From an uncultured Pseudomonadales bacterium (GTDB lineage: Bacteria; Patescibacteriota; Microgenomatia; UBA1400; PJMF01), in the NCBI GenBank assembly GCA_964620965.1, contig CAZUHV010000003.1:162093-226092 (forward strand): DNA of 64,000 bases. The letters are read 5' to 3'. The notes under the pieces are model-generated. The model had not been told where the DNA came from, searched no databases, and saw only the letters and a program-made list of their open reading frames with translations. Positions 2,933 to 45,982 of the stretch are shown piece by piece. Positions within the stretch are counted from its first letter, which is position 1. Every line of letters starts with the position of its first letter. The position numbers were made by a program, and so were the translations under genes.

Positions 2933-4243
2933 ATGCTTCCCATGCTTACATATATTTACACAAAACTCCCTTCAGGATTACAAGTTATTAGAATTCCAAT
3001 GCCAGAGGTTAAATCAGTCACTGTTTTGGCTTTGGCAAACACGGGTTCAAGGTATGAAACTCCAAAAGAACAGGGTATTGCCCACTTTTTTGAGCACATT
3101 GTTTTTAAAGGAACAAAAAATTACCCTGATGCGCAAGTTTTGGCTGGTGCAATCGATGCAATTGGAGCAGACTTTAATGCTTTTACCAGTAAAGAATACA
3201 CAGGATACTATGTTAAATCAGCAAGTGAACATATTACAACCTCTTTAGATGTTGTTTCAGACATGTTGTTAGCTCCAAAGATACTTCAAGAAGATATAGA
3301 TCGAGAAAAAAATGTCATTATTGAAGAAATAAATATGTACGAAGATACTCCAATGCGTCAAATTGGAAATCTTTTTGAAGGTTTGGTTTATGACGGATCC
3401 GGTTTAGGACATGATATTTTAGGTACAAAAGAAACTGTTTCTAGTATTAAAAGTGCAGATTTTAGAAAATTTTTAAAGAAATGGTATGGCTTGGGGAATC
3501 TAGTTTTGATTGTTTCTGGAGATGCAAGCATTGTTGAATCAGATAGGACTTTAGATTTAATAAAAAAATACTTTAGCAAAGACGCTGGTGAAAGAGAAGT
3601 TAATCGAGTTGATACAAAAGCAATTGCAGACAAAGAACTCAAACTCTCTCAAGAAAAACTATTGGTTACTTACAAAAAAACAGAACAAGCACATTTGTGT
3701 ATGGGGTGGCTTGGTCTCGAAAGAGAAGACGACAGAAGATATGCCCTTACGTTATTGAGTACAGTTCTTGGTGCAAACATGAGCTCCAGACTTTTTACTG
3801 AAATCAGAGAGAAACGTGGGCTTTGTTACTATGTGCATTCCGACACTGATTTTTACCACAACACAGGAATTTTCGGAGCTTCAGCAGGTGTTGATCCAAG
3901 TAGAATTGAAGAAGCAATTACTGTAATGCTCGAGGAATTTTATAGCCTCATAGATGGAACTAAACCAGTTACAGCAGAAGAGCTTAAAAAAGCAAAAGAC
4001 TATGTCGCTGGATCAATGGTTTTGGGGTTAGAGGATTCCAGAAGTGTTGCTCAGTTTTTTGGAATGAAACAGTTACTCTCAGGAGAAATAAAATCTCCAA
4101 CAGAGGTTTTGACGGAGTTTGAGAAAGTCACTTTGAAAGAAGTTAACGATATTGCAAAAGAGTTAATTAAGAAAGGTGAGTGTAGATTGGCTGTGATTGG
4201 GCCTTACAAAGAAAAAAAGAAGTTTGCTGATTTGATCAAGTAA
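2933..4243 (+). CDS. M16 (pitrilysin/insulinase) family zinc peptidase
   Basis: Inverted zinc motif HFFEH-IVFKGT (HxxEH) near the N-terminus; length is typical of M16B. GAGG lies 5 nt upstream of the ATG. Confidence 0.8.
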   Translation: MLPMLTYIYTKLPSGLQVIRIPMPEVKSVTVLALANTGSRYETPKEQGIAHFFEHIVFKGTKNYPDAQVLAGAIDAIGADFNAFTSKEYTGYYVKSASEHITTSLDVVSDMLLAPKILQEDIDREKNVIIEEINMYEDTPMRQIGNLFEGLVYDGSGLGHDILGTKETVSSIKSADFRKFLKKWYGLGNLVLIVSGDASIVESDRTLDLIKKYFSKDAGEREVNRVDTKAIADKELKLSQEKLLVTYKKTEQAHLCMGWLGLEREDDRRYALTLLSTVLGANMSSRLFTEIREKRGLCYYVHSDTDFYHNTGIFGASAGVDPSRIEEAITVMLEEFYSLIDGTKPVTAEELKKAKDYVAGSMVLGLEDSRSVAQFFGMKQLLSGEIKSPTEVLTEFEKVTLKEVNDIAKELIKKGECRLAVIGPYKEKKKFADLIK

Positions 4244-4328
4244 TGATACTCGAAAAATGATAAAATAGTCTTTCTATCATACATAATAAATTTAGTAAAT
4301 TAAAAGTATAAAGTATAAAAAGGAAATT

Positions 4329-4811
4329 ATGAAAACAGCACGAACAGCAGTTTTAGTTAAGCCAGATGGCTTACAAAGAGGATTGATTGGAGAAATTATC
4401 TCAAGATTCGAGAGAAAAGGTCTTAAATTGATTGGCCTTAAAATGCTTAACATGTCTGATGAACAACTCTCAGATTGGTATGCAGAACATAAAGACAAAA
4501 GTTTCTTTGGAGATCTCAAGTCTTTCATGGGTTCTATGCCAATTGTTGCTATGGTCTGGGAAGGTATTGATGCAGTTCCAGTCGTAAGAAAACTCGTTGG
4601 AACTACTCTTGGTAGAGAAGCAGAAGGTGGATCTATTCGAGGTGACTTTGGAATGAGCCAACAGTTTAATCTTATTCATGCCTCAGCAAATGGGGATGAT
4701 GCAGAACGAGAAATCAAGATAGTTTTTGAAGATGCAGAACTTTTTGACTATGTAGGCGTTATGGACACTGTTATCTATGCAGACTATGAGCTTGCTAAGA
4801 TGAAAGAGTAA
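4329..4811 (+). CDS. ndk: Nucleoside diphosphate kinase
   Basis: NDK fold motifs (VLVKPDG, NLIHASAN active-site His region). AAAAGGAAA RBS. Confidence 0.9.
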   Translation: MKTARTAVLVKPDGLQRGLIGEIISRFERKGLKLIGLKMLNMSDEQLSDWYAEHKDKSFFGDLKSFMGSMPIVAMVWEGIDAVPVVRKLVGTTLGREAEGGSIRGDFGMSQQFNLIHASANGDDAEREIKIVFEDAELFDYVGVMDTVIYADYELAKMKE

Positions 4812-4855
4812 TAAATGTTGCTAAGTTTTTTAACTTGCTAAATTTAGTTTTAAAA

Positions 4856-4890
4856 TCAAAAATCGCTCGAGTAAAATTGGGCGATTTTTT
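4856..4890. terminator. Bidirectional rho-independent terminator between ndk and tRNA-Arg
   Basis: AAAATCGC-loop-GCGATTTT hairpin flanked by an A-run and a T-run. Confidence 0.6.
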
Positions 4891-4909
4891 GTATTTCTTA
4901 CAAAATTTG

Positions 4910-4981
4910 TGCCCCCACCAGGAATCGAACCTGAAGTTGCCGCTTAGGAGGCGGCCGTTTTATCCATTGAACTATAGGGGC
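4910..4981 (-). tRNA. tRNA-Arg (anticodon CCT)
   Basis: The reverse complement folds as a cloverleaf: GCCCCTA acceptor, GTTCGATTC T-arm, and anticodon loop CUCCUAA giving CCT. CCA is not encoded. Confidence 0.85.
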
Positions 4982-5155
4982 GTTATAGCTAGTGTTTTCT
5001 CAAACAGTTTTATTACACATTGCGGAATCACTTTTTGCAATGCGATAATAGCTGTACGCTACAAGGTATTCTACCAAACATGCCTGGCATATTAAATACA
5101 CATAGGTTTTTTTAGCTTATGCTGATACTATGTGCAGTGGTCAGAAGGGGAGAAT

Positions 5156-6376
5156 ATGGTTCGTACAACGAAAAAAACTGTAAGAAAACCTAAAAAAGTG
5201 GGTGGGGCTGTTCCTTCAAAAAATCAAAAAAAAAGCCCTAATAAAAAAGTTCCTGCAAACGCCCGTATCAAGGCACAGACTCCAAAAGATAGAACTCAAC
5301 TTAATTCAATTTACCTTTCTTCAGTGTTTGTAAGGCCAGATGAAACGCCTTTTTGGGAATTTTTGAAGAACGCGAACATTCCATTTTTTAAGAAACATTT
5401 CCCATTTTTAACAAACAACCAGATTCCTCAAATAAAGCAGGTTTTTGATTTTTCTGACTATATACGCATCGGATCGCGTGGAGAGGCTCTTTCGTACCTA
5501 TACAACGGCTTTGGCAAGGCATTAAACTATGTTGGTCCAGTCTTAGATCTTGAGTTAGAGCATGGTTTTAATGATCACACTGATCGCCACACGCTTTGGG
5601 TAACTCAGACAGGTGTTGAGCTGTTGCAAAGAGCTGGGATTTCTTATGATGGATCTGGGCATTATGATCCGTTAACAGAAACAATGATGACTTTAGTTGG
5701 TATGACCCATGATTTGGGTAATTTTTTCTCTAGAAAAGAACATTCAACATATAGCGCTTGGTTGCTTACCAGGCTATTTTCAAACACTAAAAAACATCCA
5801 AAAGAGTTTGAAACTGTATTACATTCAATTTTATTTCACGAAGAACCAACTTTAGTGAATCTGGGAATGAATATCGAGGACGGCACACCACTACAGTGGG
5901 CTTTGGTTGCTGCAGATAAGATGCATGTTGGCAGAGATAGAGTGGGAGGGCGTTCATTTGAGAGTGGAATTGCTAAAGGTGCACTCGAGGATGATATTCA
6001 TATTGTTTTAAATGCGTTAGTCGTTCGATCTAGCTGGCATTTGGGAGTTCGTAAGTTTGTTTGGAACCTTGATTTTAGTGTGGATCAACTTGAGGAAAAA
6101 TTTGAAAGTTTTACAACAGGCAATCAAAGGTTATATCTTCCAAAGTTTTTCCAGAAAATGTTTATTAGTAAGGGAACCTTATATCGAGAGTCATTCTCGA
6201 AATTATTTACTGATATTTATAAAAATCGTATTGAATTGGCGGCGAAATGTGTGTTTTTACTATTTCCTCATATTTCTGAATTTGTTGTCGAGTTGTCAGA
6301 CAATGATACAAGGGCAAAAGTGGGTAGTGGCAGGATGACAGTGGTGACTTTAACGAGAAAACAAGTATTTCTTTAG
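5156..6376 (+). CDS. Hypothetical protein with a Lys-rich N-terminal tail and a possible HD-domain phosphohydrolase core
   Basis: Start moved to MVRTTKK, which has AGGGGAG 5 nt upstream. H...DH...HD (MTHDLG) spacing resembles an HD domain but is unverified. Confidence 0.45.
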   Translation: MVRTTKKTVRKPKKVGGAVPSKNQKKSPNKKVPANARIKAQTPKDRTQLNSIYLSSVFVRPDETPFWEFLKNANIPFFKKHFPFLTNNQIPQIKQVFDFSDYIRIGSRGEALSYLYNGFGKALNYVGPVLDLELEHGFNDHTDRHTLWVTQTGVELLQRAGISYDGSGHYDPLTETMMTLVGMTHDLGNFFSRKEHSTYSAWLLTRLFSNTKKHPKEFETVLHSILFHEEPTLVNLGMNIEDGTPLQWALVAADKMHVGRDRVGGRSFESGIAKGALEDDIHIVLNALVVRSSWHLGVRKFVWNLDFSVDQLEEKFESFTTGNQRLYLPKFFQKMFISKGTLYRESFSKLFTDIYKNRIELAAKCVFLLFPHISEFVVELSDNDTRAKVGSGRMTVVTLTRKQVFL

Positions 6377-7769: not shown

Positions 7770-8795
7770 ATGCATATCCCATTTATCGATAAGCTGAATA
7801 AAAAAATAGGTATAGACTTGGGTACATCTCGTGTTCGCATTTGGGTTATGGGTTCTGGAGTGGTTGTTGATGAAGCGACATGTATTGCGTTTGATAAAAA
7901 AACAAAGAATATTCTTGCAGTTGGTGAGGCTGCTGTAGAAATGGATGGAAGAGTAGGGGATCATATTGAAGTTTCCTATCCTGTTGTTAATGGAAAAATC
8001 TATGATGAGGTTGCGGTTACAACGTTACTAAAGATTTTGTTGAATCAGGCGATTGGTTCTATTGCACTGTATAACCCAATTATTATGGCATCTGTTCCTG
8101 TGGGAGCTACGCAAGCAGATAGAGAAATAATGACGCAAGTTTTGTATGCACTTGGTGCAGGAGAAACGTACACTATTGCGCAACCCCTAGCTGCAGGGAT
8201 TGGTGCTGGGGTGCCCATTGCAGATGCTTCTGGAAGTTTTATTTTGCACATGGGAGCAGGAGTTGTTGAAGGAGTTGTTATTTCTTTAGGAAGTGTGATT
8301 GTTTCTCAGTCAAGTGAGTATGCGGGTAACTATATTAGCAATGGTATGCGAATTTTTATACAAAAAAATCTGGATCTCAAGATTAGTAAAAGAACAGCAA
8401 GTGATTTAAAGAAAACAGTTGTTTCTTTGGAGTATAACTCTGATAGAGAAAAATTGGTTGCAGGGCAGGATGTTGTTGATGAAAATCCTAAAGAGGTTTT
8501 GATTAAAAGTAGAGATTTGCTGGATTATACTTTGAATTACTTAGGCAAAGTTGAAGACGTTGTGGTGCGTTTGTTATCAAAAATGCCTTCAGAACTTGCA
8601 GTTGATGTGATTGATAAAGGGTTGTTATTGACTGGTGGAACAGCTCAGTTACATGCTATTGAAGCGTTTTTTGTAGAAAAACTTGGAATTCCAGTTTCTG
8701 TGGTGGACAATTCCGAACAGACAACAATCAATGGTATTGGCCAAGCTTTGGAGCACTTAGATCTATTTAAGAAAAGTTTGGGATATCAGGAGTAA
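7770..8795 (+). CDS. mreB: MreB-like actin-family protein (paralog 1, standalone)
   Basis: IGIDLGTS phosphate-1 motif, GAGVVEGVVISLG, LTGGTAQL. It is divergent from canonical MreB. Confidence 0.7.
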   Translation: MHIPFIDKLNKKIGIDLGTSRVRIWVMGSGVVVDEATCIAFDKKTKNILAVGEAAVEMDGRVGDHIEVSYPVVNGKIYDEVAVTTLLKILLNQAIGSIALYNPIIMASVPVGATQADREIMTQVLYALGAGETYTIAQPLAAGIGAGVPIADASGSFILHMGAGVVEGVVISLGSVIVSQSSEYAGNYISNGMRIFIQKNLDLKISKRTASDLKKTVVSLEYNSDREKLVAGQDVVDENPKEVLIKSRDLLDYTLNYLGKVEDVVVRLLSKMPSELAVDVIDKGLLLTGGTAQLHAIEAFFVEKLGIPVSVVDNSEQTTINGIGQALEHLDLFKKSLGYQE

Positions 8796-8844: not shown

Positions 8845-10287
8845 TTAACCTAGTGCAACAAATTTTCTGAACTGATCTCCACGATCTTGGTAGTTTTCGA
8901 ACAAGTTGAAACTTGCGCTTGCAGGACTCATTAACACAACATCTCCTTCTTGAGAGTGATCTTTTGCAATTTGCACTGCTTGTTGCATAGAAGAAACTTG
9001 AGTATAGGTAATTTCTCCCATGTTATTAGAAATTCGCTTTTCAACTTCTTCTAAAATGATCTCACCTGTATCTGGGAGAAGGATTAAATGTTTGATTTGA
9101 TGATCAATAATTACTTGAGCGAGCTCTGAGTAGTCTAGACCTCGATCAAAACCACCTGCTATAAGAATAATTGGATTATTTTTAAAGCTTTCGATTGCGG
9201 CAATTGTTGCAACAGGAGTAGTAGAGAGTGAGTCGTTGTAGTAAGAAACTCCGTTAACTACTTGTACAAGTTCAAGTCTATGAGGCAGTGTTTTGAAGCT
9301 TTGCAGAGCTGAAGCTACAGCGGTAGTTTCTAGACCTAGTTGTTTGGCAATGACGACAGCTGGAAGAGCATTAGTGATTGTATGTTTTCCGATGAGGTTG
9401 ACTGTATCAAGATCAACGATTTGTTCTCCGTTGTAGGTAATCCAGTTGTTGTGAATGTTTCTTTCGTAACTAAAGTTGAGTTGTTGTGCATCTCCCATGT
9501 GCGCAATTTTTTTTGGAATGTACGAATGGGATTCAAGAACTGCAAAGTCGGCGTCAGACTGGAACATACAAATATGTGCTTTTGCTTTTACATATGCATC
9601 AAATGTTTTGTAGTAATCTAAATGTTCTGGGGTGACATCTAATATAACTGCATAGTTTGGACTTTGTTGTGCATCATTAAGTTGATGACAAGATAGTTCT
9701 AGAACAGCAAAAACTGGAAATCCAGAGGAATTTCTTTCTGCTGTATCGATAATTGGATCGATCAGTGAAAGGGGAGCAATTCCAATATTGCCGCCCAGAA
9801 ACGCGTGTAGTCCTGCACTAGAAAGTACATGCGCGATAATTGCAGTTGTGGTACTTTTTCCTTTTGTACCAGTTATTCCAATCGTTTTGACTTTTTGTTG
9901 TTCACTTGGAAGATTGGAATTAATAAGGTCTATTACAGTAAAAAAGAGATTGGTATTCGAGGTGATATTTGCTTGAAGTTCTTCTGCCTGCTTGAGTAAC
10001 TTGTTGTGGAGTGGGATGCCTGGTGTTTTAAAAATAATAACTCCATCTGCAGAGAGTAATTCTGAGTGTTGTAGATGATTTATGAATGTTGCGTTGCTGT
10101 CTGTGTTGCTAATTGTATGCCAAACCTCATCTAGGTTCGCGATGCTTTTTTCATCAACAAGCCAAAGATTTTTTTCTGGAAGATACTTTCTTAAGAATTC
10201 ATATGTTGAGTGTCCCTCACGACCAAGCCCAAGTATAACGATTTCTTTATCTTGGAGTTGCTGTAGGTAATCATAAATTTGATGCAT
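8845..10287 (-). CDS. murD: UDP-N-acetylmuramoylalanine--D-glutamate ligase (MurD or MurD2-type)
   Basis: N-terminal Rossmann IVILGLGREGHS and Mur-ligase P-loop GITGTKGKSTTT. The length is right for MurD. Confidence 0.85.
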   Translation of the reverse strand: MHQIYDYLQQLQDKEIVILGLGREGHSTYEFLRKYLPEKNLWLVDEKSIANLDEVWHTISNTDSNATFINHLQHSELLSADGVIIFKTPGIPLHNKLLKQAEELQANITSNTNLFFTVIDLINSNLPSEQQKVKTIGITGTKGKSTTTAIIAHVLSSAGLHAFLGGNIGIAPLSLIDPIIDTAERNSSGFPVFAVLELSCHQLNDAQQSPNYAVILDVTPEHLDYYKTFDAYVKAKAHICMFQSDADFAVLESHSYIPKKIAHMGDAQQLNFSYERNIHNNWITYNGEQIVDLDTVNLIGKHTITNALPAVVIAKQLGLETTAVASALQSFKTLPHRLELVQVVNGVSYYNDSLSTTPVATIAAIESFKNNPIILIAGGFDRGLDYSELAQVIIDHQIKHLILLPDTGEIILEEVEKRISNNMGEITYTQVSSMQQAVQIAKDHSQEGDVVLMSPASASFNLFENYQDRGDQFRKFVALG

Positions 10288-10293
10288 AGTTTT

Positions 10294-11772
10294 TTATATC
10301 TGCTTCATACGTTTGCTTGATTCTAGTTCAGTTTTTAGAATATCAGCAAATTCTTTTGGAAGCGAGTTGTCTTCATTCCAACTTGCAAAGATTTTTTGAG
10401 CTCTGACTGCATAGTCAGTATCACCATTTTGGCCAGTTTGCAGCTTTGGATTAGAATCTAGCTCTTGTTTTACTTTTTTGAGTAAAATTGGAAGGTTTTT
10501 ATGGTTTTTTTCATATGTTTGAATACAAAGATAGAATGCTGCGACTGTTTCTTCATGTGTTCCCACACAATCAAATGGTTTCGTTTCTGCTATTCCAAGA
10601 AGTTCTTTTGTAGTTTGCCAGAGTTCTTCGGATTCAAAGAGGTTTTTACCAAAGTATGCAGTAAGCCGGTCTTCTCCTAAAAATGGAAAGAGAATTGTCC
10701 AAGCAAATAAGCATTTTGAGCAGTGGCAACACCAAGCATTTTGCTTTTGTCCTTTGTTACAACTTCTAAACGTTGGATGGTGGTCTGGAAACTGGGCAAA
10801 AATTTGAGCAATTTGGAGTTCATAGAGTGGGCGTAAAAACGAAAAGTAGAAAGGAGCCTGTTCTGGAAGATATGTCTTAACGTATTGCTGAAAGTCTTTT
10901 TCAAATTCATATGATTTAGAGTATTGATGGTTTATTTCTTGATCACAATACCAGACGTTTCCTTCATTTGAGCTTCTCTCATTACTAATTGCAACATGCG
11001 TGTATCCAAACAAATCGGCAGTTAATAGGCTTAAAAATGCAAGATAGGCGCTGATTGGAACGTGCCCGTTGAGGTAGCCGGCCTCATTGAGCTCAAAGAG
11101 CTTTGGATCAATAGTTCTTGTAATTTTGATTTGTCTTTCTTGAGGAATGCGACTGACATCTATAGTGTGTTGTGCAGATTGAGGAGTGCTGACAATATAC
11201 GTGCCAACAGTGTAGTTTTTTTTGAGTATCTCTAGTGTCGTAGCAGAGTCTTTACCACCACCAACGGGTACGAGGACTGTAGGGGAAGATTTGGTGTCGG
11301 AAAAAGATGCATTTTCTTGAGATGTTAAAACTCTAGAGGTTGAGTGTTCCTTATTAGATTCAATTCTGAAGTTTACAAAGCTTTGTGTAGAAAAATCTAT
11401 GTTATTTTGATAGAAAAATTCTCCCATTCCTTTGAGGAGGAGCTTGTGCCAAAAACTTACTCCTTCTGGAGAAAGTTTTCCAGCTTGGATGACTATTTCT
11501 GGCGAGGCAGTGGTTTTCCAGTAGCTGTATAATTCTGCAAGTCCTATGGTAAAGGCATAAGTATCTATAGCATCTTTGCCAATTTTTTGAATCATTTCCT
11601 GAGTAACATTGTGAATTGTGACTGTAGGATTAAAGAAAATGTCTGGGCTAATTTTGTAAATAAATGTTAGTTTTAGGTCGGAATTATTGAGTAACTCCCA
11701 TGAATAACTCTGGTAGGTAAATGTTTTATGAGTAGCGCGCAGTTGTGTTGCTTGCTGTTTGAGTATTTGCAT
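10294..11772 (-). CDS. PP-loop (adenine-nucleotide alpha-hydrolase)-like ATPase with a C-terminal Cys cluster
   Basis: VPVGGGKDSATT resembles the SGGxDS PP-loop. The C-terminal CNKG...WCCHCSKC is a cysteine cluster. Its stop lies 6 nt from the murD start. Confidence 0.5.
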   Translation of the reverse strand: MQILKQQATQLRATHKTFTYQSYSWELLNNSDLKLTFIYKISPDIFFNPTVTIHNVTQEMIQKIGKDAIDTYAFTIGLAELYSYWKTTASPEIVIQAGKLSPEGVSFWHKLLLKGMGEFFYQNNIDFSTQSFVNFRIESNKEHSTSRVLTSQENASFSDTKSSPTVLVPVGGGKDSATTLEILKKNYTVGTYIVSTPQSAQHTIDVSRIPQERQIKITRTIDPKLFELNEAGYLNGHVPISAYLAFLSLLTADLFGYTHVAISNERSSNEGNVWYCDQEINHQYSKSYEFEKDFQQYVKTYLPEQAPFYFSFLRPLYELQIAQIFAQFPDHHPTFRSCNKGQKQNAWCCHCSKCLFAWTILFPFLGEDRLTAYFGKNLFESEELWQTTKELLGIAETKPFDCVGTHEETVAAFYLCIQTYEKNHKNLPILLKKVKQELDSNPKLQTGQNGDTDYAVRAQKIFASWNEDNSLPKEFADILKTELESSKRMKQI

Positions 11773-12380
11773 ACTGACCTTTTATTCTGGTTAGAAACTC
11801 GTTTATACCAAGTAGTGTATCTTATTTTTAGAGATTTTAATAGAAGTGCAGTAGCGTTGAAACGCAAATGAATTGTTGCACAATAAGATGAAAGCAGGTT
11901 GAGGCTAAAATTGGTTTTTTGGTAAAACTGGAAAAGTATCGGGTTTTGGAAATGTGGTGTTTTTAGTTCGGGTTGTAGTGATTAAAATATGATGTTTTTT
12001 GAGTGCTGGGGGAGGGGTTTTTCGAATTTAATCACTTATCTAGAAAAAATGTACTCAAAATGCCTTTTCAACAAGTTATCAAGATAAAGATGATAACAAA
12101 ATGTGTTTGTTTTTGGATTCTTTAGTTCGGAATATTGAACACAAAAATTTTTCAAAATTAAAAACACGAAGAAGATGCGAAAAAAAATAATATTTTACAT
12201 TTTTTAATTTTGTTCTAATTTTTAGTAAAATGTAAAAAAGAGCAGAGAATTCTTACATTTTTGCAGAAAAAATGCGCTCAATGACATATCTTTATAATTT
12301 TGCTAAACTATATCAGAGTGACAGTTTTGTTTGGGAAATACGTGGGGTAAAAAAACAATACTAACTGTTGATTTAAATTT

Positions 12381-13312: not shown

Positions 13313-14920
13313 ATGGCAATTGAGACATATTCACTTCTTAAAGGGTTAAGAGAAGCAACAAAGAATAATATAGTTGGAAGGCCTGATACTGTTAAAGCTG
13401 GTGGGGTTAGTCAATTAAATCCTGACAAAAGAGATGCTCAAGTATCACAATTAGCAGAAGCAGTTCCTAATGTTGATAGAACTCATTGGCAGGACTCTGC
13501 TAAAGAGAAAAAAGCAAAAGAAAGAAAAACGATAGAACTTTTTGCAAGAATTGCTTCTACAATTAAAACAACAGAAGATGGTACTGCTGTTTGGAGAGAA
13601 CGAAGTTCTTCTTATGATGAGTCAGGTTATAAACCTGGTTCAAAATCAAGAGAAGAAGTGGTTAAAGAGCTTGTTGATTCTCTAGTACAGAATAAAGGTA
13701 CACTAATTTATGAAGTTTTTGGATCGGCTTTTTGTGCGGATGAGCAATTTGGAGGTTCTAACTATGGACAGATGCAACCTCATGAAAGAAGGCTTCTTAT
13801 AAATGTAGCTCCTAAGTTGATAGCTGAGTTACAAGCACAAAAAGGTGCTGATTTAGCGACAGAAGAGTACAGACAAAGAGCTGAAAGTACTATATTAAGT
13901 AAACTAAAACTTATAGCAAAGGGCAATTTGCCACCAAGATTGGTTGGGAAAGGTGAGTATAGTTCATATTCTCATGAGTCAATGTTGGCCTTAATGCAGG
14001 TTGAAGGCAATCATGTAAATGAAGTGCTTAAAAACTTTTTAGAAGATGGTTTAGTTGATGTTGATGACAAGATTGACGTTTTAAATAATTTCCCAATTAA
14101 TGATTTTGAAGATGTTTCTAGATTGATTAGTATAATTGCTGATGTTGATAGTCGAGGTATGAAAGGTGGAGATAAGATAACAGAAGCTGCAATTAAAAGA
14201 CTTAAATCGAAGAAAACATATGGCCACATTAACAATGAGACAATGGTTCAACATCAACATGTGACAAAAAAATTTGGAGCTTTTAGTCCTCAGGAACAAA
14301 GAGATATAGTTTCAGGAAGAAAAAATGTTTGTAGAGGTTTATTATTACAAATGAACTATTCTGGTAATTCTAAAGTCGCTTCTGAAGCTTTATCTCTTAT
14401 TCTCAGAGACATGACAAGTGAATGGAGTAGATCAGAAAGCCCTCGAATGTTTTCTGTTTATGGTGATGATCTAGATAGATTTAAGAGTATATCTCCAACT
14501 GTTATAAAGGCAATGCCAGGATTTGTGTTTGGGAAGAGTGCAGTTGACGAAGACGATGTGAGAGTTAATTCAGAAACAGATAAGCTCTTAGCAAAAGCAG
14601 GACTGCTTAAGAAACCAAACGTCATTCTTTCAGAAGCAAAAGCTTATTTAACGGGAGAGGTAATTAAAGGCGCTACTGAGCTATTGAAAATGATGGCTGG
14701 AAAACGAGACTATTTAGGTAACGTCAAGGTTGAGCAGGTTTCTACTGCTTTGGATGCTGCTATTGAAATGTACAGATCTCTGGACGTTTCTGACAGAGAG
14801 TCTATTACTATAAACAATTGGGATGTCAGAGAAAGCCTGAATTCTTTGCCTCGTCATATAAAGAAGGGCAGTTTAGTGAGAAAGCTTAAAAAACTTGGTT
14901 TTTCAGCTAGTGGGTATTAA
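13313..14920 (+). CDS. Hypothetical protein (535 aa) with no recognisable domain
   Basis: Long ORF with an AAGGA RBS and a strong terminator downstream. Confidence 0.55.
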   Translation: MAIETYSLLKGLREATKNNIVGRPDTVKAGGVSQLNPDKRDAQVSQLAEAVPNVDRTHWQDSAKEKKAKERKTIELFARIASTIKTTEDGTAVWRERSSSYDESGYKPGSKSREEVVKELVDSLVQNKGTLIYEVFGSAFCADEQFGGSNYGQMQPHERRLLINVAPKLIAELQAQKGADLATEEYRQRAESTILSKLKLIAKGNLPPRLVGKGEYSSYSHESMLALMQVEGNHVNEVLKNFLEDGLVDVDDKIDVLNNFPINDFEDVSRLISIIADVDSRGMKGGDKITEAAIKRLKSKKTYGHINNETMVQHQHVTKKFGAFSPQEQRDIVSGRKNVCRGLLLQMNYSGNSKVASEALSLILRDMTSEWSRSESPRMFSVYGDDLDRFKSISPTVIKAMPGFVFGKSAVDEDDVRVNSETDKLLAKAGLLKKPNVILSEAKAYLTGEVIKGATELLKMMAGKRDYLGNVKVEQVSTALDAAIEMYRSLDVSDRESITINNWDVRESLNSLPRHIKKGSLVRKLKKLGFSASGY

Positions 14921-15527: not shown

Positions 15528-17198
15528 TTACTCAATTTCAGTAGCATTAACAACTTCGCCTCCGCCGTGTTCATCCATTCCTACAAGATAAGCATTAGTG
15601 TAATCAATATTTTTTTCATCTAACCAAAGTTGAGCTATTTTTCTTAATTGATTCATAGTAACTCGACGATTTTGGTTTGCGGTAATAAAACCTATGCATT
15701 TATTATCTTTTATCACTGCAAAGTTAATAGCAATGTTGTGAACACTATTTTCTCTAGTTGGTATGTCATCAAAGGTATTAATATTAATGAGAGAAACTGG
15801 TCTTAAGATATTTTGACAAGATAAATATTCTTCTAGTTGGTTATTTGTATACTTTTCTGTGAGGATTGATATTAGTTGGGTATCACTCATAATTTGTATA
15901 TTTCCTTGAGTATCAAAGGTTACTATTGTGTGATAGGCAGGATAATTGTAGTTTTCTATTGGAATTCCACCCCATTGATCTTTGAGTTTAGAAACAAATA
16001 ACTTGAAAAAGTAATCTTTTTCTTGGGAAGAAAGCTTTTGGTATTTTGGAAGCATGTCTACTGACCAGCAGGCATACGAATTTGCAAAACATATAAATTC
16101 AATTAGGCTCATTGTTTTTTCTGCAACAACGCTTCCTCCCCAACCCATTGAAGGAATAGCTGTCCAAGAAGGAACTGTAGTAAATAGTGGATCTCCCCTT
16201 TTTCTATCATGAAATGAAAGAAACAACGGCCCTGTATGCATGTAGTTAACTGGAGAAGGGATTCCATGAGGATCTGTCATTACAGAGTCGGATGGTGGTG
16301 AAGGAAAGCCAAGTACTGGCTCATTATATCTGTTATGAGAATGGTAGGATGCTTTTTTTCCTTTTCTTTCTATTAGCTTTCTCAAAAATACCCCAACTTG
16401 ATACCCAATTACATCTTTTCCGTCTTGTGGGTAGGCTAGGGCAGAGTTGAGTTCTAATTTAAAATCACTATCAGTTGGTTCATAAATAAGAAGTTCGTCA
16501 AAAGCATTTTCTTTATTGGTTTCTATCCAACTGACGGGAATTGACGAAAGTGTGTAGCAAGGTTCAGTATGAATGTTTTTTTGTTGAGAAAAGTTTATAT
16601 TTATTGAGTGCTCAGAATATGTAGATGTTTCTTGTCTTTTTTTTGACTGTAGCATTTCTCCGATAAAAGCTCTCAGTGGGTCATAACTTGCAAGTAGAGA
16701 TTTTATGTCATCATATTTTGCCGTTCTTGCTCCTGTATTAGCAAGAATGCCTAAAATATTAAATTTTGAGCCAAAGACAATTGCAGCACTCCCTACAAGA
16801 GAAACTATGGAAGCTAGTTTTATAAACTGTCTTCTAGACATAGTCGTTGTTTCAAGTGTTTCTTTCCCTGATTTACCATCTAAAATTTTTCGTATTACCA
16901 AATTTAGTACTCCTGAACCAATGAGTGTTGCGAACCTATCATCTAGTGAGTTAATTCCGTTATGTGTGTAAATATTGGTAATTTTAAGGTGGGGAAGGTC
17001 ATGGATATGTACGTTGGGAAAAGGAAAAGTAATTGAAATTTCTGCTTGGTTGTCTGACAGAATTTGCACTTTAGGTTCTTGAAATTGAGTTACTATTTCA
17101 ATATTTGAGTCTTGTTGAGTGCGAGTTTTTTCTTGCGTATTCACAGTGTCGATATCAAAACCAGTAATCGCTAGAATTCTTTCTCTCATTGAAGGCAT
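15528..17198 (-). CDS. Hypothetical exported or membrane-anchored protein with a twin-arginine-like signal
   Basis: The track ORF runs to 17303, but a terminator hairpin lies inside its first 30 codons, so the start probably moves to MPSM (17198) or to MSRRQFIKLASIVSLVGSAAIVFGS (16841). Confidence 0.45.
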   Translation of the reverse strand: MPSMRERILAITGFDIDTVNTQEKTRTQQDSNIEIVTQFQEPKVQILSDNQAEISITFPFPNVHIHDLPHLKITNIYTHNGINSLDDRFATLIGSGVLNLVIRKILDGKSGKETLETTTMSRRQFIKLASIVSLVGSAAIVFGSKFNILGILANTGARTAKYDDIKSLLASYDPLRAFIGEMLQSKKRQETSTYSEHSININFSQQKNIHTEPCYTLSSIPVSWIETNKENAFDELLIYEPTDSDFKLELNSALAYPQDGKDVIGYQVGVFLRKLIERKGKKASYHSHNRYNEPVLGFPSPPSDSVMTDPHGIPSPVNYMHTGPLFLSFHDRKRGDPLFTTVPSWTAIPSMGWGGSVVAEKTMSLIEFICFANSYACWSVDMLPKYQKLSSQEKDYFFKLFVSKLKDQWGGIPIENYNYPAYHTIVTFDTQGNIQIMSDTQLISILTEKYTNNQLEEYLSCQNILRPVSLININTFDDIPTRENSVHNIAINFAVIKDNKCIGFITANQNRRVTMNQLRKIAQLWLDEKNIDYTNAYLVGMDEHGGGEVVNATEIE

Positions 17199-17213
17199 AA
17201 ACTCAGTATAGCA

Positions 17214-17242
17214 AAAACCCCACTCATTGAGTGGGGTTTTAG
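17214..17242 (-). terminator. Rho-independent terminator downstream of rplL
   Basis: AAAACCCCACTCATTGAGTGGGGTTTT hairpin with T-runs on both strands. Confidence 0.65.
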
Positions 17243-17336
17243 TTTTTATTTTAAGTTGAACTACGCAAAGTTTTTTAATAGTGCTTTGCAAATTTTGTAT
17301 CAACTCCTTTTTCTTCGAAAAAGAGAGGATCCAAAA

Positions 17337-27239: not shown

Positions 27240-29021
27240 TCAGGCTTTAGGTTGATTTTCAAGCGTTTTTAATAATTCTTTAGCTTTTTCTGATCCCTGA
27301 GGGGTACCTGGCTTTACAGCATAGGTTTGTACATCGATCTTCCTATCCTCAGTATGTGGATGGTATGTAACTGAACTACCAGGCTTTCTAAGTTTACTCA
27401 TAACTGCAAAGAGTATAGAGAGGACCAAAAGCAAAATGCCGACTAAGATAATAAAGAATGGAAGTTTTGATTCTGGATTTTGAATGAGGTTTTTAACCAG
27501 TCCCCAGAGTGTTTCGTCTGCCTCGTAGGAATCATCATATACTTTTTTCTCTACAAGCGCATTACCTTGCTCATTAAACTCAGTTGCATTTTCTACAGTC
27601 TTATCACCTTTGAGTGGAGTGTCAGAGTCTGCAACTTCTGCAGCATTGCTTGCATCAGTAACTTTATTTGAGTATGCATTAGAAACAGTTTCTTGAGTTG
27701 TTGCGCTACAAGAGGTGCTACTAACATTTGTTGCTAAACGGCATTGTCCCTCATAACAGCGTAAGTTAACTGCACAGTCTCTATTCGTAGAACAGGTTTC
27801 ATTACAGCTTTGAATAACGGCAGCTGTTTGTTGGGCAGTTGGGTTGGCACAACGATAATCTTGAGGGTTTTGAGGGTTTCTACAAAAGCTTTCATAGCAG
27901 GTTAAACCAGCAACACATTCAGAATTGCTTGTACAGTATTGGTTACAGCTTCGTAATGTAGTTTGTGTTGTTCCTGAACCAGTATCACTAGAGCCTCCAC
28001 CATTGTTCCCACCTCCAGTATTGCCACTAGATTCTTGGCAAGAAGAACTGCTTGGATTTATAGCAAGTCTACATAGTTTTTGGCCTCCAGTTGCATAGCA
28101 GCGCATGCCAACTTCACAGTCTCTGTTACTGGTACAGGTTTCGTTACATCCTTGTACTGGTGGAACAGTAGGTGTTGGGGTAGGAGATGGAGTTATTGTT
28201 GGAGTAGGGGTAGGTGTCCCAGATGGAGGAGGCGTTGTTCCAGGATTATTTGCACAAGTTGTGCCATTCCAACATTTACTTGCTCCACAATCACAACTGT
28301 CTGTGAGTACGTCAAGACAGGCTTGTTCTGAGACCAATGACCAACAGTTGTCTGCACAGCTATTTGGGAATTCTTTCCATGTTCCTCCAGAATTTTTACA
28401 TGCGGTTTGAGTATCAGAACCTGTAGAACCGGTTATTTCATATTCAAGCCCAGTTGGAACAGTTAATTGGACAGCAAGGTTTAAGGTATCTGCATAGGTT
28501 CTGTCTGGATCGAAAGTAATTTGGAGTTTACCAGGTTTTCTTGGAACCAGTTTAAGTCTAATAAGCGATTTATCTGATGGTTCAACGAGCCAATCTAAAT
28601 TATTTTTAACTGCTGTGACTTTAACTAAATATCCATCAGAAATTTTCTGAACTTCAATTTCTTTTGCATCAAAACCAGATCCTTGATTTACAATTACCTC
28701 TGGGGTATCTAGGTCTTTATTTGTTATGTTAAAAACTGCATATACGTGTGTAAAAGTATAATTAGCACTATTGAGGTTAAAGGCAACTTCTCCAGTTTTA
28801 TTAACTTCAAATTTTGTCCTTAGTTCTGCAGATATACCAGGTTTAGCAACAGTATCAGCAGTTTTAGCTTCACTTCTTGTATCCTGAGAAGTTTCTAGAG
28901 GTTTTTGGATAAATAAGAGTCCAATGATACCTGCTGCAACTAATAAAGCTCCGATATATGGAACTAAGTTTTTAAAATTTTCTAGGAGTGTTTGAAATAC
29001 TGAATTTGCTTTTTTCATCAA
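27240..29021 (-). CDS. Cell-surface protein: N-terminal signal anchor, beta-rich domain, Pro/Thr linker, three tandem six-Cys modules, C-terminal TM anchor
   Basis: TPTPTPTITPSPTPTPT linker; three copies of CN(E/Q)xC(T/S)xN(R/S)(D/E)C...RCY...C; hydrophobic C-terminal helix plus a basic tail. It lies 14 nt upstream of secE. Confidence 0.6.
   Translation of the reverse strand: MMKKANSVFQTLLENFKNLVPYIGALLVAAGIIGLLFIQKPLETSQDTRSEAKTADTVAKPGISAELRTKFEVNKTGEVAFNLNSANYTFTHVYAVFNITNKDLDTPEVIVNQGSGFDAKEIEVQKISDGYLVKVTAVKNNLDWLVEPSDKSLIRLKLVPRKPGKLQITFDPDRTYADTLNLAVQLTVPTGLEYEITGSTGSDTQTACKNSGGTWKEFPNSCADNCWSLVSEQACLDVLTDSCDCGASKCWNGTTCANNPGTTPPPSGTPTPTPTITPSPTPTPTVPPVQGCNETCTSNRDCEVGMRCYATGGQKLCRLAINPSSSSCQESSGNTGGGNNGGGSSDTGSGTTQTTLRSCNQYCTSNSECVAGLTCYESFCRNPQNPQDYRCANPTAQQTAAVIQSCNETCSTNRDCAVNLRCYEGQCRLATNVSSTSCSATTQETVSNAYSNKVTDASNAAEVADSDTPLKGDKTVENATEFNEQGNALVEKKVYDDSYEADETLWGLVKNLIQNPESKLPFFIILVGILLLVLSILFAVMSKLRKPGSSVTYHPHTEDRKIDVQTYAVKPGTPQGSEKAKELLKTLENQPKA
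27711..28148 (-). repeat. Three tandem coding repeats (about 35-45 aa, six-Cys modules) inside the surface-protein gene
   Basis: Protein-level repeats at residues about 292-328, 359-391 and 406-437. Confidence 0.5.
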
Positions 29022-35946: not shown

Positions 35947-37227
35947 CTATTGGTTTTTTGTAATAATATTTTTAACAACCACTCCAGCAGGAGTATGAAC
36001 CATAGTTTCTACCCAGTTCGGTGCCTTTTGGAAGTGTTCCTTAGAAAGGTTTTCTGGGCTTACTAGTTGGAAGTGCACATTTTGTTTAAAAGAATCTCCT
36101 TGAGGAGTTTTGTATTCTCCAAGTTTTTTTGCGAGTTGTTCCTGATATTCTGTTGGAATACAAATTGTTGTGAGTAGGTTTTGGTCTGTTGCGATGTACA
36201 TATAGTGTACAAGGTTTAAAACTTCATGATCTCCTCTTGGGGGAAGCCAAACGATATTTGGATTTTTACCAAGTTCTGAAAGTACCAAGCTATGCTTAAT
36301 TTGCTCGGATGGGTTAGCAATAATGAGCTGTGCATCGTGATCCATTTGTCTTGCAGCATTATAATAGAGACCTTCGTCCAGGCTTGATTTAACAGTTGGA
36401 GTATTGTATTTATTTCTGTTTTTAACATGACCTTGTAGCCATTGTCGCAGTGCAATTTCCATTTTAGTATGACCTTTTCCTGGAAATACAATGGATTCTA
36501 TCCCGCTATTTTTCCAAAGTGCCTCAATAATTTGAGTAATTAATTTCGCATCTCCGCCACTGCCAGAAAGTTTAAATACACAAATATTTTCTTTTTCAAA
36601 AATCTCAGAAAGACCGAGAAAGCGTATTTGCTCTTCATTAAGATTTTTAAAGCCTTTGAGTGGATCTAGAAGTTTAATGAGGTGGGCATCTAGTTGGTGT
36701 TCTTCTGTAAGTGTTTTATATGCATGTTCACTCCAGACCAGGTATTGTGCTTTTCGTTGTTGTTCAGTTGGGGTTCTGTGAGGGGAAAGTTTTCCAATTG
36801 CGTCGGGCAGGATAATGATGACGGAAAATTTTTTGCCGTTAAGTTTTACTTCAGTTGCTTCTTCACCAAGCACATTCTGTGGAGTTAAAAAGAACTCAGC
36901 ATTTGGATATCGTTTTAATGTTGATTTAATAAAAAGTCGGAGTTGTAATTTAAGAAGCTCCGCTTTTTTTGAATCTCTAGTTGCCACACTATTTTCTGCG
37001 TATTTCATTGTTCTCTCTGTACTACTAGACATGAGTGCATGAAATACAGCTCCTGCAGTAATCATTGCTCCAGAAGGATAAATATCTTTGACTCTAATGC
37101 CAGCTTCTTCTAACTCTTGGGTTATTGCTGCTGTTTCTGTAGGATTGCCAAGACCGATAGCAGGTGTTGCTGTAACAACTTCTACGGATTTTCTAAAATT
37201 TTTTTCTTTACTAGAAAAAGGTGGCAT
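35947..37227 (-). CDS. Hypothetical protein (426 aa), possibly a GT-B-like or nucleotide-binding fold
   Basis: ORF with Gly-rich loops (LGNPTETAAI, SGSGGDAK); no confident family. Confidence 0.45.
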   Translation of the reverse strand: MPPFSSKEKNFRKSVEVVTATPAIGLGNPTETAAITQELEEAGIRVKDIYPSGAMITAGAVFHALMSSSTERTMKYAENSVATRDSKKAELLKLQLRLFIKSTLKRYPNAEFFLTPQNVLGEEATEVKLNGKKFSVIIILPDAIGKLSPHRTPTEQQRKAQYLVWSEHAYKTLTEEHQLDAHLIKLLDPLKGFKNLNEEQIRFLGLSEIFEKENICVFKLSGSGGDAKLITQIIEALWKNSGIESIVFPGKGHTKMEIALRQWLQGHVKNRNKYNTPTVKSSLDEGLYYNAARQMDHDAQLIIANPSEQIKHSLVLSELGKNPNIVWLPPRGDHEVLNLVHYMYIATDQNLLTTICIPTEYQEQLAKKLGEYKTPQGDSFKQNVHFQLVSPENLSKEHFQKAPNWVETMVHTPAGVVVKNIITKNQ

Positions 37228-43719: not shown

Positions 43720-44721
43720 ATGAAAGCGTTAGGAGTGGTGCAATCTTTATTTCTCAAAAAGGCAGAACCTGTTCTGATTGATCTTGGATCTTCCTACACT
43801 CGAATCTATCTTGGTGAAAAAGAAGCTTTCAATGGGGCAACTTGTATTGCAGTTCACACAAACTCAGAATCTGTGGTTGCTGTAGGAAACAAGGCTTTGC
43901 AGTTATTGGGTAAAACGCCCGATTCGGTAGAGATCAGTTTTCCTGTTTTAAATGGAGAGGTTGCTCACACAAGATATTTAGAATTATTTTTAACTGCCAT
44001 ATTAAAGGAAGCACTTTCAGAATTGAATATCCAAAGAGGTTTATTTGGTTTAACTGCAAAAGTCGCGATTCCCAATTCGCTTGCTCCAGCAAAAAAGAAT
44101 TTGTTAAAAGGAATTCTTAAAACTGTTGGTTTTAATAAGATAACATTCATAGGAAGTGGTTTTATTATTGCCAAGAACATTGCAAAAAATGATAGTAAGT
44201 TACGAGATATTTGTGTGTTAGATATTGGGGCTCAAAAATCAGAGATATCGATTTTTTCATTAGGAGAGCTTGTATATGCACAATCATATAGGTGGGGAGG
44301 AGTGTTTTTAACAGAGAGCTTGCAGAAAATTGTTAGAAGTAAACATAACTGTGTGGTTGGATGGCATGTAGCAGAGGATGCTAAAAAGGAAATTGGAAGT
44401 TTTGTTACAACAAAAGAAAAGCTTGCAATTAGAGGAAAAGACCTTGTGAGTCAGGCCAGTAAAACTGTTATTATAGATAGTACTGACATTAAAGGTGAGT
44501 TTTCGAAATTACTTGACGAACTACTAGATGATATTCAACAGTTTATCTCGTTGTTGCCTTCAGAAGTAGCAATCTCGGTGTTAGATAAAGGAATTTACTT
44601 AACTGGAGGTACTAGCCAAATAGAGGGAATTGACCAAGCAGTGATTGAAAAATTTAAGTGTGATGTTTTGGTTTCAACTCGACCACAAATGGATGTGATC
44701 ATTGGACTACAAGCTCTTTGA
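43720..44721 (+). CDS. mreB: Rod-shape protein MreB (paralog 2, in a mreBCD-PBP2 operon)
   Basis: LIDLGSSYTRIY, LTGGTSQIEG; operon context. Confidence 0.8.
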   Translation: MKALGVVQSLFLKKAEPVLIDLGSSYTRIYLGEKEAFNGATCIAVHTNSESVVAVGNKALQLLGKTPDSVEISFPVLNGEVAHTRYLELFLTAILKEALSELNIQRGLFGLTAKVAIPNSLAPAKKNLLKGILKTVGFNKITFIGSGFIIAKNIAKNDSKLRDICVLDIGAQKSEISIFSLGELVYAQSYRWGGVFLTESLQKIVRSKHNCVVGWHVAEDAKKEIGSFVTTKEKLAIRGKDLVSQASKTVIIDSTDIKGEFSKLLDELLDDIQQFISLLPSEVAISVLDKGIYLTGGTSQIEGIDQAVIEKFKCDVLVSTRPQMDVIIGLQAL

Positions 44722-45499
44722 GCAGAGTTTAAGTAGGAATAGTATGAAAAAAGAACCAGCAATTTTTATAGGTATTATATTTTTATGTGGATTGTTTGAG
44801 TTTGTTGGTTGGTTTGATTGGTTTAGAAATCTTTCTCAAAAAATAAGTGCTCCAGTTTTAGCATATAACGTAAGGTTGATAGAAAAAGCTGCTCGACCAT
44901 ATGAAGCAGTGGTGTTTAATTTTACAAAATCAAAGTACCTTAAGCAGGTTGAGGCAAATTATGCTCAAGCACTGTCTCAGTTAAATGAATTGGATGTGCT
45001 TCGTGCAGAAAATGCCGAGCTTCGAAAACTGCTTGGAACTAGTGACAGAAAAATAGATGAAAAAATAATAGTTGGAGCTCCGATTGTTTCTCTTGCATAT
45101 CCAGCAGTCGGGATAGGTTCTGTAGACGGAGTTCAAGTCAATGACATGGTTTTGATAGATAAAGTTTTGGTTGGCACAGTTGATACTGTTACGGAGTATC
45201 AATCAAAGGTTGCTTTGCTCACAACAAAGAGAAAAAACAGAATTTTGGCGCGAACAGAGAGTGGAGTCGAAGGAGTAATTGATGGAGACGGAAGAAACGT
45301 TTTATTAACACACATTCCCCGATCTACTCAGTTGCAAGAAGGAGAGCGCGTGGTTACAGTTGGTCAGGAAGGAATAGAAAAAAATGTGTTGATTGGAACA
45401 GTTCAAAAAGCTACGACAAATCCATCTGACTCAACAAATACGTATGTAGTTTCTCAGCTCGTCTCGTTTTATAATGCAGTTTTAGTGGAGGTGAAATAA
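44702..45499 (+). CDS. mreC: Rod-shape protein MreC
   Basis: N-terminal TM, a coiled-coil (ENAELRKLLG) and a beta-barrel region. Confidence 0.7.
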   Translation: MDYKLFEQSLSRNSMKKEPAIFIGIIFLCGLFEFVGWFDWFRNLSQKISAPVLAYNVRLIEKAARPYEAVVFNFTKSKYLKQVEANYAQALSQLNELDVLRAENAELRKLLGTSDRKIDEKIIVGAPIVSLAYPAVGIGSVDGVQVNDMVLIDKVLVGTVDTVTEYQSKVALLTTKRKNRILARTESGVEGVIDGDGRNVLLTHIPRSTQLQEGERVVTVGQEGIEKNVLIGTVQKATTNPSDSTNTYVVSQLVSFYNAVLVEVK

Positions 45500-45505
45500 A
45501 GCTAT

Positions 45506-45979: not shown

Positions 45980-45982
45980 TGA

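Follow-up and report, generated by a model that had tools for sequence, protein, structure and literature searches.

A MurL-type gene directly upstream of a murD homologue in a Patescibacteria bacterium: a probable MurD2/MurL route to peptidoglycan D-glutamate

In a 64-kb stretch of DNA (64,000 nucleotides, analysed as a whole and called the window here), a "hypothetical protein" of 492 aa is encoded directly upstream of a murD homologue. What is this protein, and which glutamate does its neighbour add? The first-pass annotation had put forward a MurL-type epimerase acting together with a MurD2-type ligase or, failing that, an uncharacterised family. The MurD2/MurL route was first described in Xanthomonas oryzae in 2017 (reviewed in PMC8788868, PMC5808125), and the chemistry is known from Xanthomonas, Micromonospora and Salinispora enzymes. 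It shares the ligase fold and the ATP-binding residues with canonical MurD plus MurI, but inversion follows ligation and takes place on the nucleotide-linked dipeptide, at the cost of an extra ATP and with no need for a free D-Glu pool. Reviews describe MurL as a protein without known domains whose mechanism is unclear (PMC5808125, PMC8788868).

The genes and intervals at the locus are:

10294-11772, minus strand: murL, an ORF of 492 aa (ORF list and homology)
10288-10293, minus strand: 6-nt spacer from the murL stop (TAA) to the murD start (ATG) (sequence)
8845-10287, minus strand: murD homologue of 480 aa (TIGR01087, Mur_ligase_M and Mur_ligase_C domains, residue mapping)
11773-12380, no strand: AT-rich intergenic region of 608 nt between murL and a divergent wecG-family gene (sequence)

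Both the coordinates and the sequence of the junction (ATA TAA aaaact ATG) agree with the earlier placement of the 492-aa ORF on the same strand as murD and 6 nt upstream of it. The short gap suggests that the two genes may be translationally coupled; upon inspection of the sequence, no clear Shine-Dalgarno was seen 5' of the murD ATG. The operon promoter presumably lies within the 608-nt intergenic region. Promoter-like matches around the operon, this region included, were not commoner than in shuffled sequence, and a terminator scan around the operon was no more informative than one of shuffled sequence. Rfam gave no match to the intergenic region, and its matches in the window were tRNAs only. 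MreB, WecG and PEGA genes are the neighbours at the locus, a neighbourhood that recurs in a relative of 69% identity.

An HMM search with the 492-aa protein, as the first-pass annotation had advised, matched the NCBIfam MurL model NF041275 (E=1.3e-67, 228 bits), with aa 74-422 corresponding to positions 62-399 of the 447 in the model. This score is far under the equivalog cut-off of 700 bits. NCBIfam calls the model MurL_Xanthmoales, and so high a cut-off suggests that it is tuned to Xanthomonadales; all 38 aligned homologues also match it, the best of them at only E=3.1e-76. Using blastp with the PGAP-annotated MurL of Xanthomonas sacchari, whose murL/murD2 pair was taken from a plasmid collection, we observed 31% identity over 334 aa (E=1.3e-49). 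The proteins are homologous over ~340 residues and share the PP-loop (GGGKDS), NGH, SNE, NHQxSK, four cysteines and ECVG. As in the window, the Xanthomonas gene lies directly upstream of a murD-like gene, overlapping or abutting it, and the arrangement in X. sacchari is the same as ours. Unlike the known MurLs, the window protein belongs to a low-GC CPR/Patescibacteria host rather than to Proteobacteria or Actinobacteria, and it exceeds them in length by ~40 aa and carries a disordered insert (aa 148-160).

Precomputed hits place PF26299 (MurL_N) and PF26298 (MurL_epimerase_C) on a homologue of the same length and 97% identity (P0001) as well as on all 240 homologues listed, and the window protein would have the same architecture, as read from these homologues; several relatives with both domains carry the JGI name MurL. 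A Pfam scan of the 492-aa protein with a release older than the MurL models gave QueC (E=0.16) and DUF6395 (E=0.11) as its best matches, neither of them significant. Because phmmer returned no relatives of the protein in the PDB, the searched copy contains no MurL structure. A homologue search that started from a high-GC MAG (L021) and was aimed at the Xanthomonas and Micromonospora MurLs returned further MAG proteins only. Judged by homology, the "hypothetical protein" is MurL, and the fallback of an uncharacterised family was discarded since the ORF matches the MurL model.

Within the protein, we mapped the following segments:

11245-11271, minus strand: PP-loop motif VPVGGGKDS, aa 168-176, the predicted ATP/pyrophosphate-binding loop (invariance, alignment, fold)
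10711-10761, minus strand: cysteine cluster CNKGQKQNAWCCHCSKC, aa 338-354, C338-x9-C348-x2-C351-x2-C354, a predicted QueC-like zinc site (invariance)
10549-10569, minus strand: CVGTHEE segment, aa 402-408, speculative candidate catalytic residues (invariance)

Conservation was scored over 38 homologues of 43-69% identity, in all of which P169 and G171-S176 (P-x-GGGKDS), C338, C348, C351 and C354, and C402, V403, G404 and E408 are invariant. The PP-loop and cysteine motifs exceed chance. VPVGGGKDS had been read as a PP-loop before, and the fold supports that identity; the cysteine cluster is likewise present as annotated, but it sits ~70% along the protein rather than at the C-terminus. The spacing of the four cysteines is QueC-like, and by analogy they may form a zinc site.

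The PP-loop of the window protein aligns with SGGKDS of TtuA and SGGQDS of E. coli QueC. An AF2 model of the 492-aa protein (pLDDT 93.4) was compared with alpha-hydrolase folds, a comparison that had been proposed earlier, and matched QueC, Cap9, TtuA, NAD synthetase and LarE. ThiI was a further structural neighbour, Foldseek matched QatC along the full length of the model, and the closest solved fold is that of QueC. In the model, an SGGxDS-type loop sits where the first strand of a predicted Rossmann-like domain ends, as expected for the PP-loop superfamily (adenine nucleotide alpha-hydrolase fold). The Pfam QueC match (PF06508) covers aa 311-355 and reaches 11.9 bits against a cut-off of 22, below the gathering score, and hhalign with E. 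coli QueC gave a probability of 11% (E=0.0027). Going by the model, the protein is QueC-like by fold only. It differs from QueC and Cap9/QatC in that no significant sequence-family match links it to them and in that MurL has extra N-terminal (~140 aa) and C-terminal helical (~140 aa) domains; by analogy, its substrate would also differ, being UDP-muramyl dipeptide, which would be epimerised, whereas those enzymes form amides or nitriles or modify proteins.

These neighbours raise the question of whether the ORF encodes a tRNA-modification or queuosine PP-loop enzyme (TilS/TtcA/TtuA/QueC), or a defence protein similar to QatC/Cap9, and sits beside murD by chance. Both the structural matches to QueC, Cap9, QatC, TtuA and ThiI and profile matches to TtuA (E=1.2e-3) and MnmA in their PP-loop region favour such an enzyme. 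However, the TtuA and MnmA matches span only a 46-residue P-loop segment, on which ground the tRNA-modification reading was rejected; a TilS/TtcA-type match, named by the first-pass annotation as the result that would speak against MurL, was not found beyond that segment. Searches of Pfam, NCBIfam and PADLOC linked the protein to no such family, and no que, tRNA-modification or defence genes lie nearby. The QatC/Cap9 defence reading was dropped because PADLOC gave no match, the neighbours being the MreB, WecG and PEGA genes. In addition, adjacency to murD is kept across phyla, with overlaps and fusions. A chance neighbour of this kind is thus extremely improbable, and we consider it effectively refuted.

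The linkage itself was followed in related loci. In ~70 of 80 such loci, which come from several phyla, murL is followed on the same strand by a murD-like gene. Where both genes were present (n=65), the gap has a median of -4 nt, 45 pairs overlap, and in 5 loci the two are fused in frame; MurL-MurD fusion proteins also account for 29 of the best 150 family representatives.

The identity of the glutamate added by the partner was approached through its residues. The 480-aa ligase matches TIGR01087 at 333 bits and has Mur_ligase_M and Mur_ligase_C domains, and it keeps the ATP-binding residues K115, N138, E157, H183 and K198 (E. coli numbering). Residue mapping placed the following codons:

9625-9627, minus strand: E221, equivalent to E. 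coli D182, X. oryzae E197 and X. sacchari E206
9226-9228, minus strand: L354, equivalent to E. coli K319 and X. sacchari I339
9142-9144, minus strand: R382, equivalent to E. coli K348, X. oryzae R358 and X. sacchari R367
8908-8910, minus strand: F460, equivalent to E. coli L416; Phe also in X. sacchari MurD2

Previous work has reported that the double mutation E197D/R358K turns MurD2 into a D-Glu ligase and that E. coli MurD with K319T accepts L-Glu (PMC8788868). At the position of E. coli A414, the window protein has Ala (A458) as E. coli does, versus Pro in MurD2. Because the MurD2 mutants P433A and F435L are reported to retain L-Glu specificity, and because Phe at the L416 position also occurs in the canonical MurD of T. 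maritima, the A414 and L416 positions are not discriminating. Among 69 MurDs, comprising that of the window and 68 MurL-linked ones from related loci, Glu is present at 182 in 66 and Arg at 348 in 68, and none has Lys at 319, nor has any of 120 further homologues at that position. Each of the three canonical MurDs (E. coli, T. maritima, S. agalactiae) has Lys at 319, with Asp or Thr at 182. Canonical-like D/K residues do occur in some MurL-linked MurDs (as at locus L006), so the L-Glu signature is not universal among them, and there are subgroups with D/A/K and E/Q/K at positions 182, 319 and 348.

Like X. sacchari MurD2, the window MurD is a three-domain Mur ligase encoded directly downstream of murL, with Glu, Arg, a hydrophobic residue and Phe at D182, K348, K319 and L416, respectively. 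It differs in having Ala instead of Pro at A414, and identity is only ~28% (142 bits); overall, it is nearer to the canonical Streptococcus agalactiae MurD (222 bits). In an NJ tree of 73 MurD sequences, three of them canonical, the window protein groups with MurL-linked CPR MurDs, and the split between the canonical three and the rest received a bootstrap of 39/100. X. sacchari MurD2 stands on a long branch, and this tree resolves no MurD2 clade with Xanthomonas in it. The first-pass annotation had held that a MurD clustering with D-Glu-adding ligases would count against its proposal; D-Glu-type residues are absent from the window MurD. From these residues, it is most likely that the adjacent "MurD" adds L-Glu, not D-Glu.

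A different outcome of the same activation can also be envisaged, in which the 492-aa protein would be a QueC-like enzyme that adenylates the alpha-carboxylate of Glu for, e.g., ammonia-dependent amidation to iso-glutamine, beside a D-Glu-adding MurD. Gram-positive peptidoglycan often contains iso-glutamine, and as a whole the window MurD looks like the streptococcal enzyme; QueC, the closest solved fold, works through adenylates as it converts a carboxylate first to an amide and then to a nitrile. Yet the homology is specific to MurL, with QueC reaching just 11.9 bits, and the window MurD has both L-Glu-determining residues and no Lys319. Furthermore, for MurL orthologues from two phyla, ATP/Mg2+ has proved sufficient for epimerisation (PMC8788868). 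We judge amidation to be very unlikely. The murL and murD genes of the window very probably constitute the MurD2/MurL route to peptidoglycan D-glutamate, and the pairing first proposed is borne out by NF041275, the Pfam domains of the homologues, the X. sacchari alignment and the ligase residues. As such, the pair is a further, ordinary example of the known MurD2/MurL system, in a CPR/Patescibacteria bacterium.

By analogy, the CPR pair would share the activities of the Xanthomonas type. The MurD2-type ligase would add L-glutamate, rather than D-glutamate, to UDP-MurNAc-L-Ala. The QueC-like PP-loop core of MurL would then bind ATP via P-x-GGGKDS and adenylate the alpha-carboxylate of the terminal L-Glu. 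Either this acyl-adenylate or the oxazolone to which it could give rise with the Ala carbonyl would acidify the C-alpha proton, which could be taken off and put back on the opposite face, and hydrolysis would free the D-product. We propose that the reaction would be one-way because only the L-epimer would be adenylated; the details of proton exchange are our conjecture. The ATP-to-AMP stoichiometry that has been reported for MurL agrees with a PP-loop fold (PMC8788868, PMC5808125).

Is this pair the only source of D-Glu? A tblastn search of the 64-kb window with E. coli MurI gave no match (best E=8), Pfam hits to the window ORFs scanned include neither a racemase nor an aminotransferase, and the window has no second murD. 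A canonical murI, whose presence would have told against the first proposal, is therefore not seen in these 64 kb. Neither a murI-like sequence nor a second murD was found in the 21-kb locus of the 69%-identical relative. It is conceivable that MurD2/MurL is genuine here but redundant or conditional, with MurI or a D-amino-acid aminotransferase, and possibly a second canonical MurD, encoded elsewhere, as the sample is 64 kb of the genome and Saccharibacteria MAGs are present among the MurL loci. CPR genomes are strongly reduced, which makes such redundancy less likely, and the absences in the window and in the locus of the relative also weigh against it. An active MurI has been reported for at least one CPR bacterium, Ca. 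Saccharimonas aalborgensis (cited in PMC11974145); on the other side, published MurD2/MurL genomes lack D-Glu-forming genes (PMC8788868). Taken together, we regard a second source of D-Glu as unlikely, though well short of negligible.

Reviews state that MurD2/MurL is limited to Xanthomonadales, a few Alphaproteobacteria and Micromonosporaceae (PMC8788868, PMC5808125). We observed a MurL family of 3359 clusters at 50% identity and at least 589 MurL-matching stretches in a one-genome-per-species collection. The MurL/MurD pair occurs commonly in CPR, Bacteroidales, Clostridia and Acidobacteria, with many matches in CPR and gut/rumen anaerobes, and MurD2/MurL is far more widespread than the papers we found state. 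Our literature search for MurL together with CPR, Bacteroidales, Clostridia or QueC/PP-loop found no link, and the description of Minisyncoccus does not mention peptidoglycan genes. We lean slightly towards a joint reading, in which MurD2/MurL may be a major D-Glu route in much of CPR/Patescibacteria and in many uncultured Bacteroidales, Clostridia and Acidobacteria, often as one MurL-MurD fusion, and in which MurL would be a QueC-derived, zinc-binding PP-loop adenylating enzyme.

Every public name returned for a MurD2-type ligase, that of the X. sacchari gene included, calls it a D-glutamate ligase, and if the route is this widespread, many database entries for "MurD, D-glutamate ligase" would be wrong. 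MurD2/MurL has been proposed as a narrow-spectrum antibiotic target on the premise that few genera have it (PMC8788868, PMC5808125), a premise that the 3359 clusters and 589 or more stretches, many in CPR and gut/rumen anaerobes, weaken. The QueC-type PP-loop core and the four-Cys site offer testable residues for a mechanism that has been called unclear (PMC5808125, PMC8788868), and a QueC-derived adenylating MurL would give a concrete mechanism to an epimerase described as lacking known domains. The finding is also relevant to the D-Glu supply of host-dependent bacteria with reduced genomes, which by this route would do without a free D-Glu pool.

The first-pass annotation had described two adjoining ORFs and two motifs in this part of the window (window G+C ~36%), and we found all of them at the positions reported. 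With the neighbouring intergenic region added, the features are:

10294-11772, minus strand: 492-aa ORF, murL
8845-10287, minus strand: 480-aa ORF, a murD homologue 3' of murL
aa 168-176 of the 492-aa protein: PP-loop, VPVGGGKDS
aa 338-354 of the 492-aa protein: cysteine cluster, CNKGQKQNAWCCHCSKC
11773-12380: AT-rich intergenic region of 608 nt between murL and a divergent wecG-family gene

The two genes are separated by a 6-nt spacer (...ATA TAA aaaact ATG...), with no obvious Shine-Dalgarno sequence at the junction. The cysteine cluster had been called C-terminal; it is present, but lies ~70% along the protein. The 608-nt intergenic region gave no Rfam match, and promoter-like sites within it were not in excess over shuffled sequence.

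A local Pfam scan of the 492-aa protein returned nothing significant (QueC, E=0.16; DUF6395, E=0.11). The NCBIfam scan gave a single strong match, NF041275 'MurL_Xanthmoales' (E=1.3e-67), whose product name is UDP-N-acetyl-alpha-D-muramoyl-L-alanyl-L-glutamate epimerase; the match, at 228 bits, falls short of the 700-bit equivalog cut-off set for this order-specific model. It aligns aa 74-422 of the protein with positions 62-399 of the 447-position model, and NF041275 was also matched by all 38 sequences of an alignment (A1) containing the window protein and 37 homologues. A search among 5.8 billion proteins yielded >7000 homologues, the best of which (P0001, 97% identity, and the next, 69%) come from Patescibacteria MAGs. 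All homologues among the matches listed carry precomputed PF26298 (MurL_epimerase_C) and PF26299 (MurL_N) domains, and several had already been named MurL by JGI. An authentic Xanthomonas pair, annotated murL-murD, is present on a 508-kb X. sacchari replicon. Its MurL is 31% identical to the window protein over 334 residues (E=1.3e-49) and shares the PP-loop (AIGGGKDS), NGH, SNE, NHQWSK, the four cysteines, and ECVG. Given the NF041275 match, the MurL domains of the homologues, and the similarity and shared motifs of X. sacchari MurL, we assign the 492-aa ORF to the MurL family, as had been proposed, and not to an uncharacterised family, the other option entertained. The X. sacchari 'plasmid' also carries genes that look essential; it may be a chromid or a piece of a chromosome. 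Separately, Pseudonocardia plasmids (P. alni pPaSha1, 3764-5164 of locus L087; NZ_CP010991; NZ_CP011869) hold a MurL-like gene of ~28% identity, annotated hypothetical and, on pPaSha1 at least, with no adjoining murD; its product may be related to MurL but act on another substrate.

Residues invariant in A1 were P169, G171-S176, N235-H237, N264-E265, N269-E270, N281-H282, Y284-K286, R314-P315, C338, C348, C351, C354, C402-G404, and E408. The AlphaFold2 model built from A1 (mean pLDDT 93.4, pTM 0.91) was disordered only at residues 148-160, and its top Foldseek match was the QueC-like QatC, aligned over the full length (E=2.6e-4). The A1 profile matched the SGGKDS region of TtuA (E=1.2e-3) and, weakly, E. 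coli QueC over the PP-loop and NGHVP segment, all of which bears out the earlier PP-loop guess. The spacing of the four cysteines is QueC-like, and they probably form a structural zinc site. Carboxylate adenylation is the chemistry of QueC, so a PP-loop core of this type agrees with the hypothesis that MurL adenylates an alpha-carboxylate. Two reviews give this hypothesis, describe the reaction as requiring one ATP with AMP as a product, and state that MurL 'lacks known conserved domains' (PMC5808125, PMC8788868). In the mechanism that we propose, adenylation of the terminal L-Glu alpha-carboxylate would acidify C-alpha, directly or via an oxazolone; the C-alpha proton would be taken off and put back on the opposite face, and hydrolysis would release the D-epimer. 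L-form-selective adenylation would set the direction of epimerisation.

The 480-aa ORF encodes a MurD homologue of full length (TIGR01087, 333 bits, plus Mur_ligase_M/C domains). Relative to E. coli MurD, X. oryzae MurD2 carries D182→E197, K348→R358, A414→P433, and L416→F435; the double mutation E197D/R358K turns it into a D-Glu ligase, and E. coli MurD K319T accepts L-Glu (PMC8788868). The E. coli numbering in that work is that of the Met-less protein, as we confirmed.

Residues at the positions compared between MurD and MurD2, in E. coli numbering (E. coli; T. maritima; S. agalactiae; X. sacchari MurD2; window)
182: D; D; T; E206; E221
319: K; K; K; I339; L354
348: K; K; R; R367; R382
414: A; A; A; P443; A458
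416: L; F; W; F445; F460

At the two switching positions the window ligase has the MurD2 residues (E221, R382), and it lacks Lys319; X. sacchari MurD2 is alike in all three, in agreement with the suggestion of a MurD2-type partner. When the window's MurD was compared with 68 from MurL-containing loci, E occupied position 182 in 66 of the 69 and R position 348 in 68, while none had K at 319. At 182/319/348, 102 of 120 further homologues had E, L/I/M, R, 12 had E/Q/K, and six had D/A/K. The signature is not universal, since locus L006 has D/A/K yet is MurL-linked. Overall, the window MurD is more similar to streptococcal MurD than to Xanthomonas MurD2, and a neighbour-joining tree with three canonical sequences did not separate the deep branches. 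Canonical-like residues (D/A/K or E/Q/K) occur in subgroups of CPR MurD homologues, for example L006 7316-8665, directly linked to murL, and the database proteins P0195, P0206, P0212, P0216, P0219, P0229, P0167, and similar ones.

A murD homologue follows murL on the same strand in ~70 of the 80 loci kept. For the 65 loci with both genes delimited, the median gap was -4 nt, with 45 overlaps, 8 gaps of 0-20 nt, and 5 in-frame fusions (L007, L026, L039, L055, L073). The 69% relative, 'Patescibacteria group bacterium BroJett025', has a 17-nt murL/murD overlap and the same neighbourhood as the window: WecG, MurL, MurD, MreB, PEGA, M16 peptidase, and ArgRS. When 1.84 billion cluster representatives were searched exhaustively with an HMM, 3359 clusters fell into the MurL family (1558 at E≤1e-30). 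Among the best 150 of these, 29 are MurL-MurD fusion proteins of ~900 aa (P0361, P0367, P0377, and others), mostly with MurL N-terminal and MurD C-terminal; P0380 alone is reversed. Gene-calling artefacts could account for some of them, though not for the five fusions that were checked in the DNA itself. Scanning one genome per species gave at least 589 murL-matching stretches. Sources among the matches listed, whose MAG taxon labels may be unreliable, were CPR (Gottesman-, Roizman-, Pace-, Nealson-, and Saccharibacteria, and the cultured Minisyncoccus archaeiphilus), Bacteroidales, Lachnospiraceae including Pseudobutyrivibrio xylanivorans DSM 14809, other Clostridia, Erysipelotrichaceae, and high-GC MAGs; a further homologue search added MAGs of Acidobacteria, Binatia, and Deltaproteobacteria.

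The window otherwise has ordinary CPR housekeeping content: ArgRS, ThrRS, ribosomal protein L1, NusG, fmt/def, TopA, DprA, ThyA, Tmk, and five tRNAs, together with genes for two MreB paralogues, MreC, PBP2, and a WecG-family transferase. No murI-like sequence or second murD was found within the 64 kb. An active MurI has been reported for one Saccharibacterium, as cited in PMC11974145. Other features of the window were:

7770-8795, plus strand: MreB paralogue 1, convergent (tail-to-tail) with the putative murD2
43720-47962, plus strand: mreB-mreC-(157-aa ORF)-PBP2 cluster, with MreB paralogue 2
5132-6376 and 13313-14920, plus strand; 15528-17303, 27240-29021, and 35947-37227, minus strand: large ORFs (414-593 aa) with no Pfam match at E≤0.001

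By sequence criteria, the window pair is very likely a MurD2/MurL system, working like that of Xanthomonas and belonging with it. Every public name returned for the MurD2-type ligase, Xanthomonas and CPR homologues included, was "D-glutamate ligase"; the X. sacchari ligase (L086 5121-6557, NZ_CP010410) is so named. Curators are partly ahead of the literature, with the Pfam MurL families and the JGI naming of MurL, but not in naming the ligase. What goes beyond the literature we found is the breadth of the MurL family with its MurL-MurD fusions, and the QueC-type PP-loop and four-cysteine architecture of MurL.
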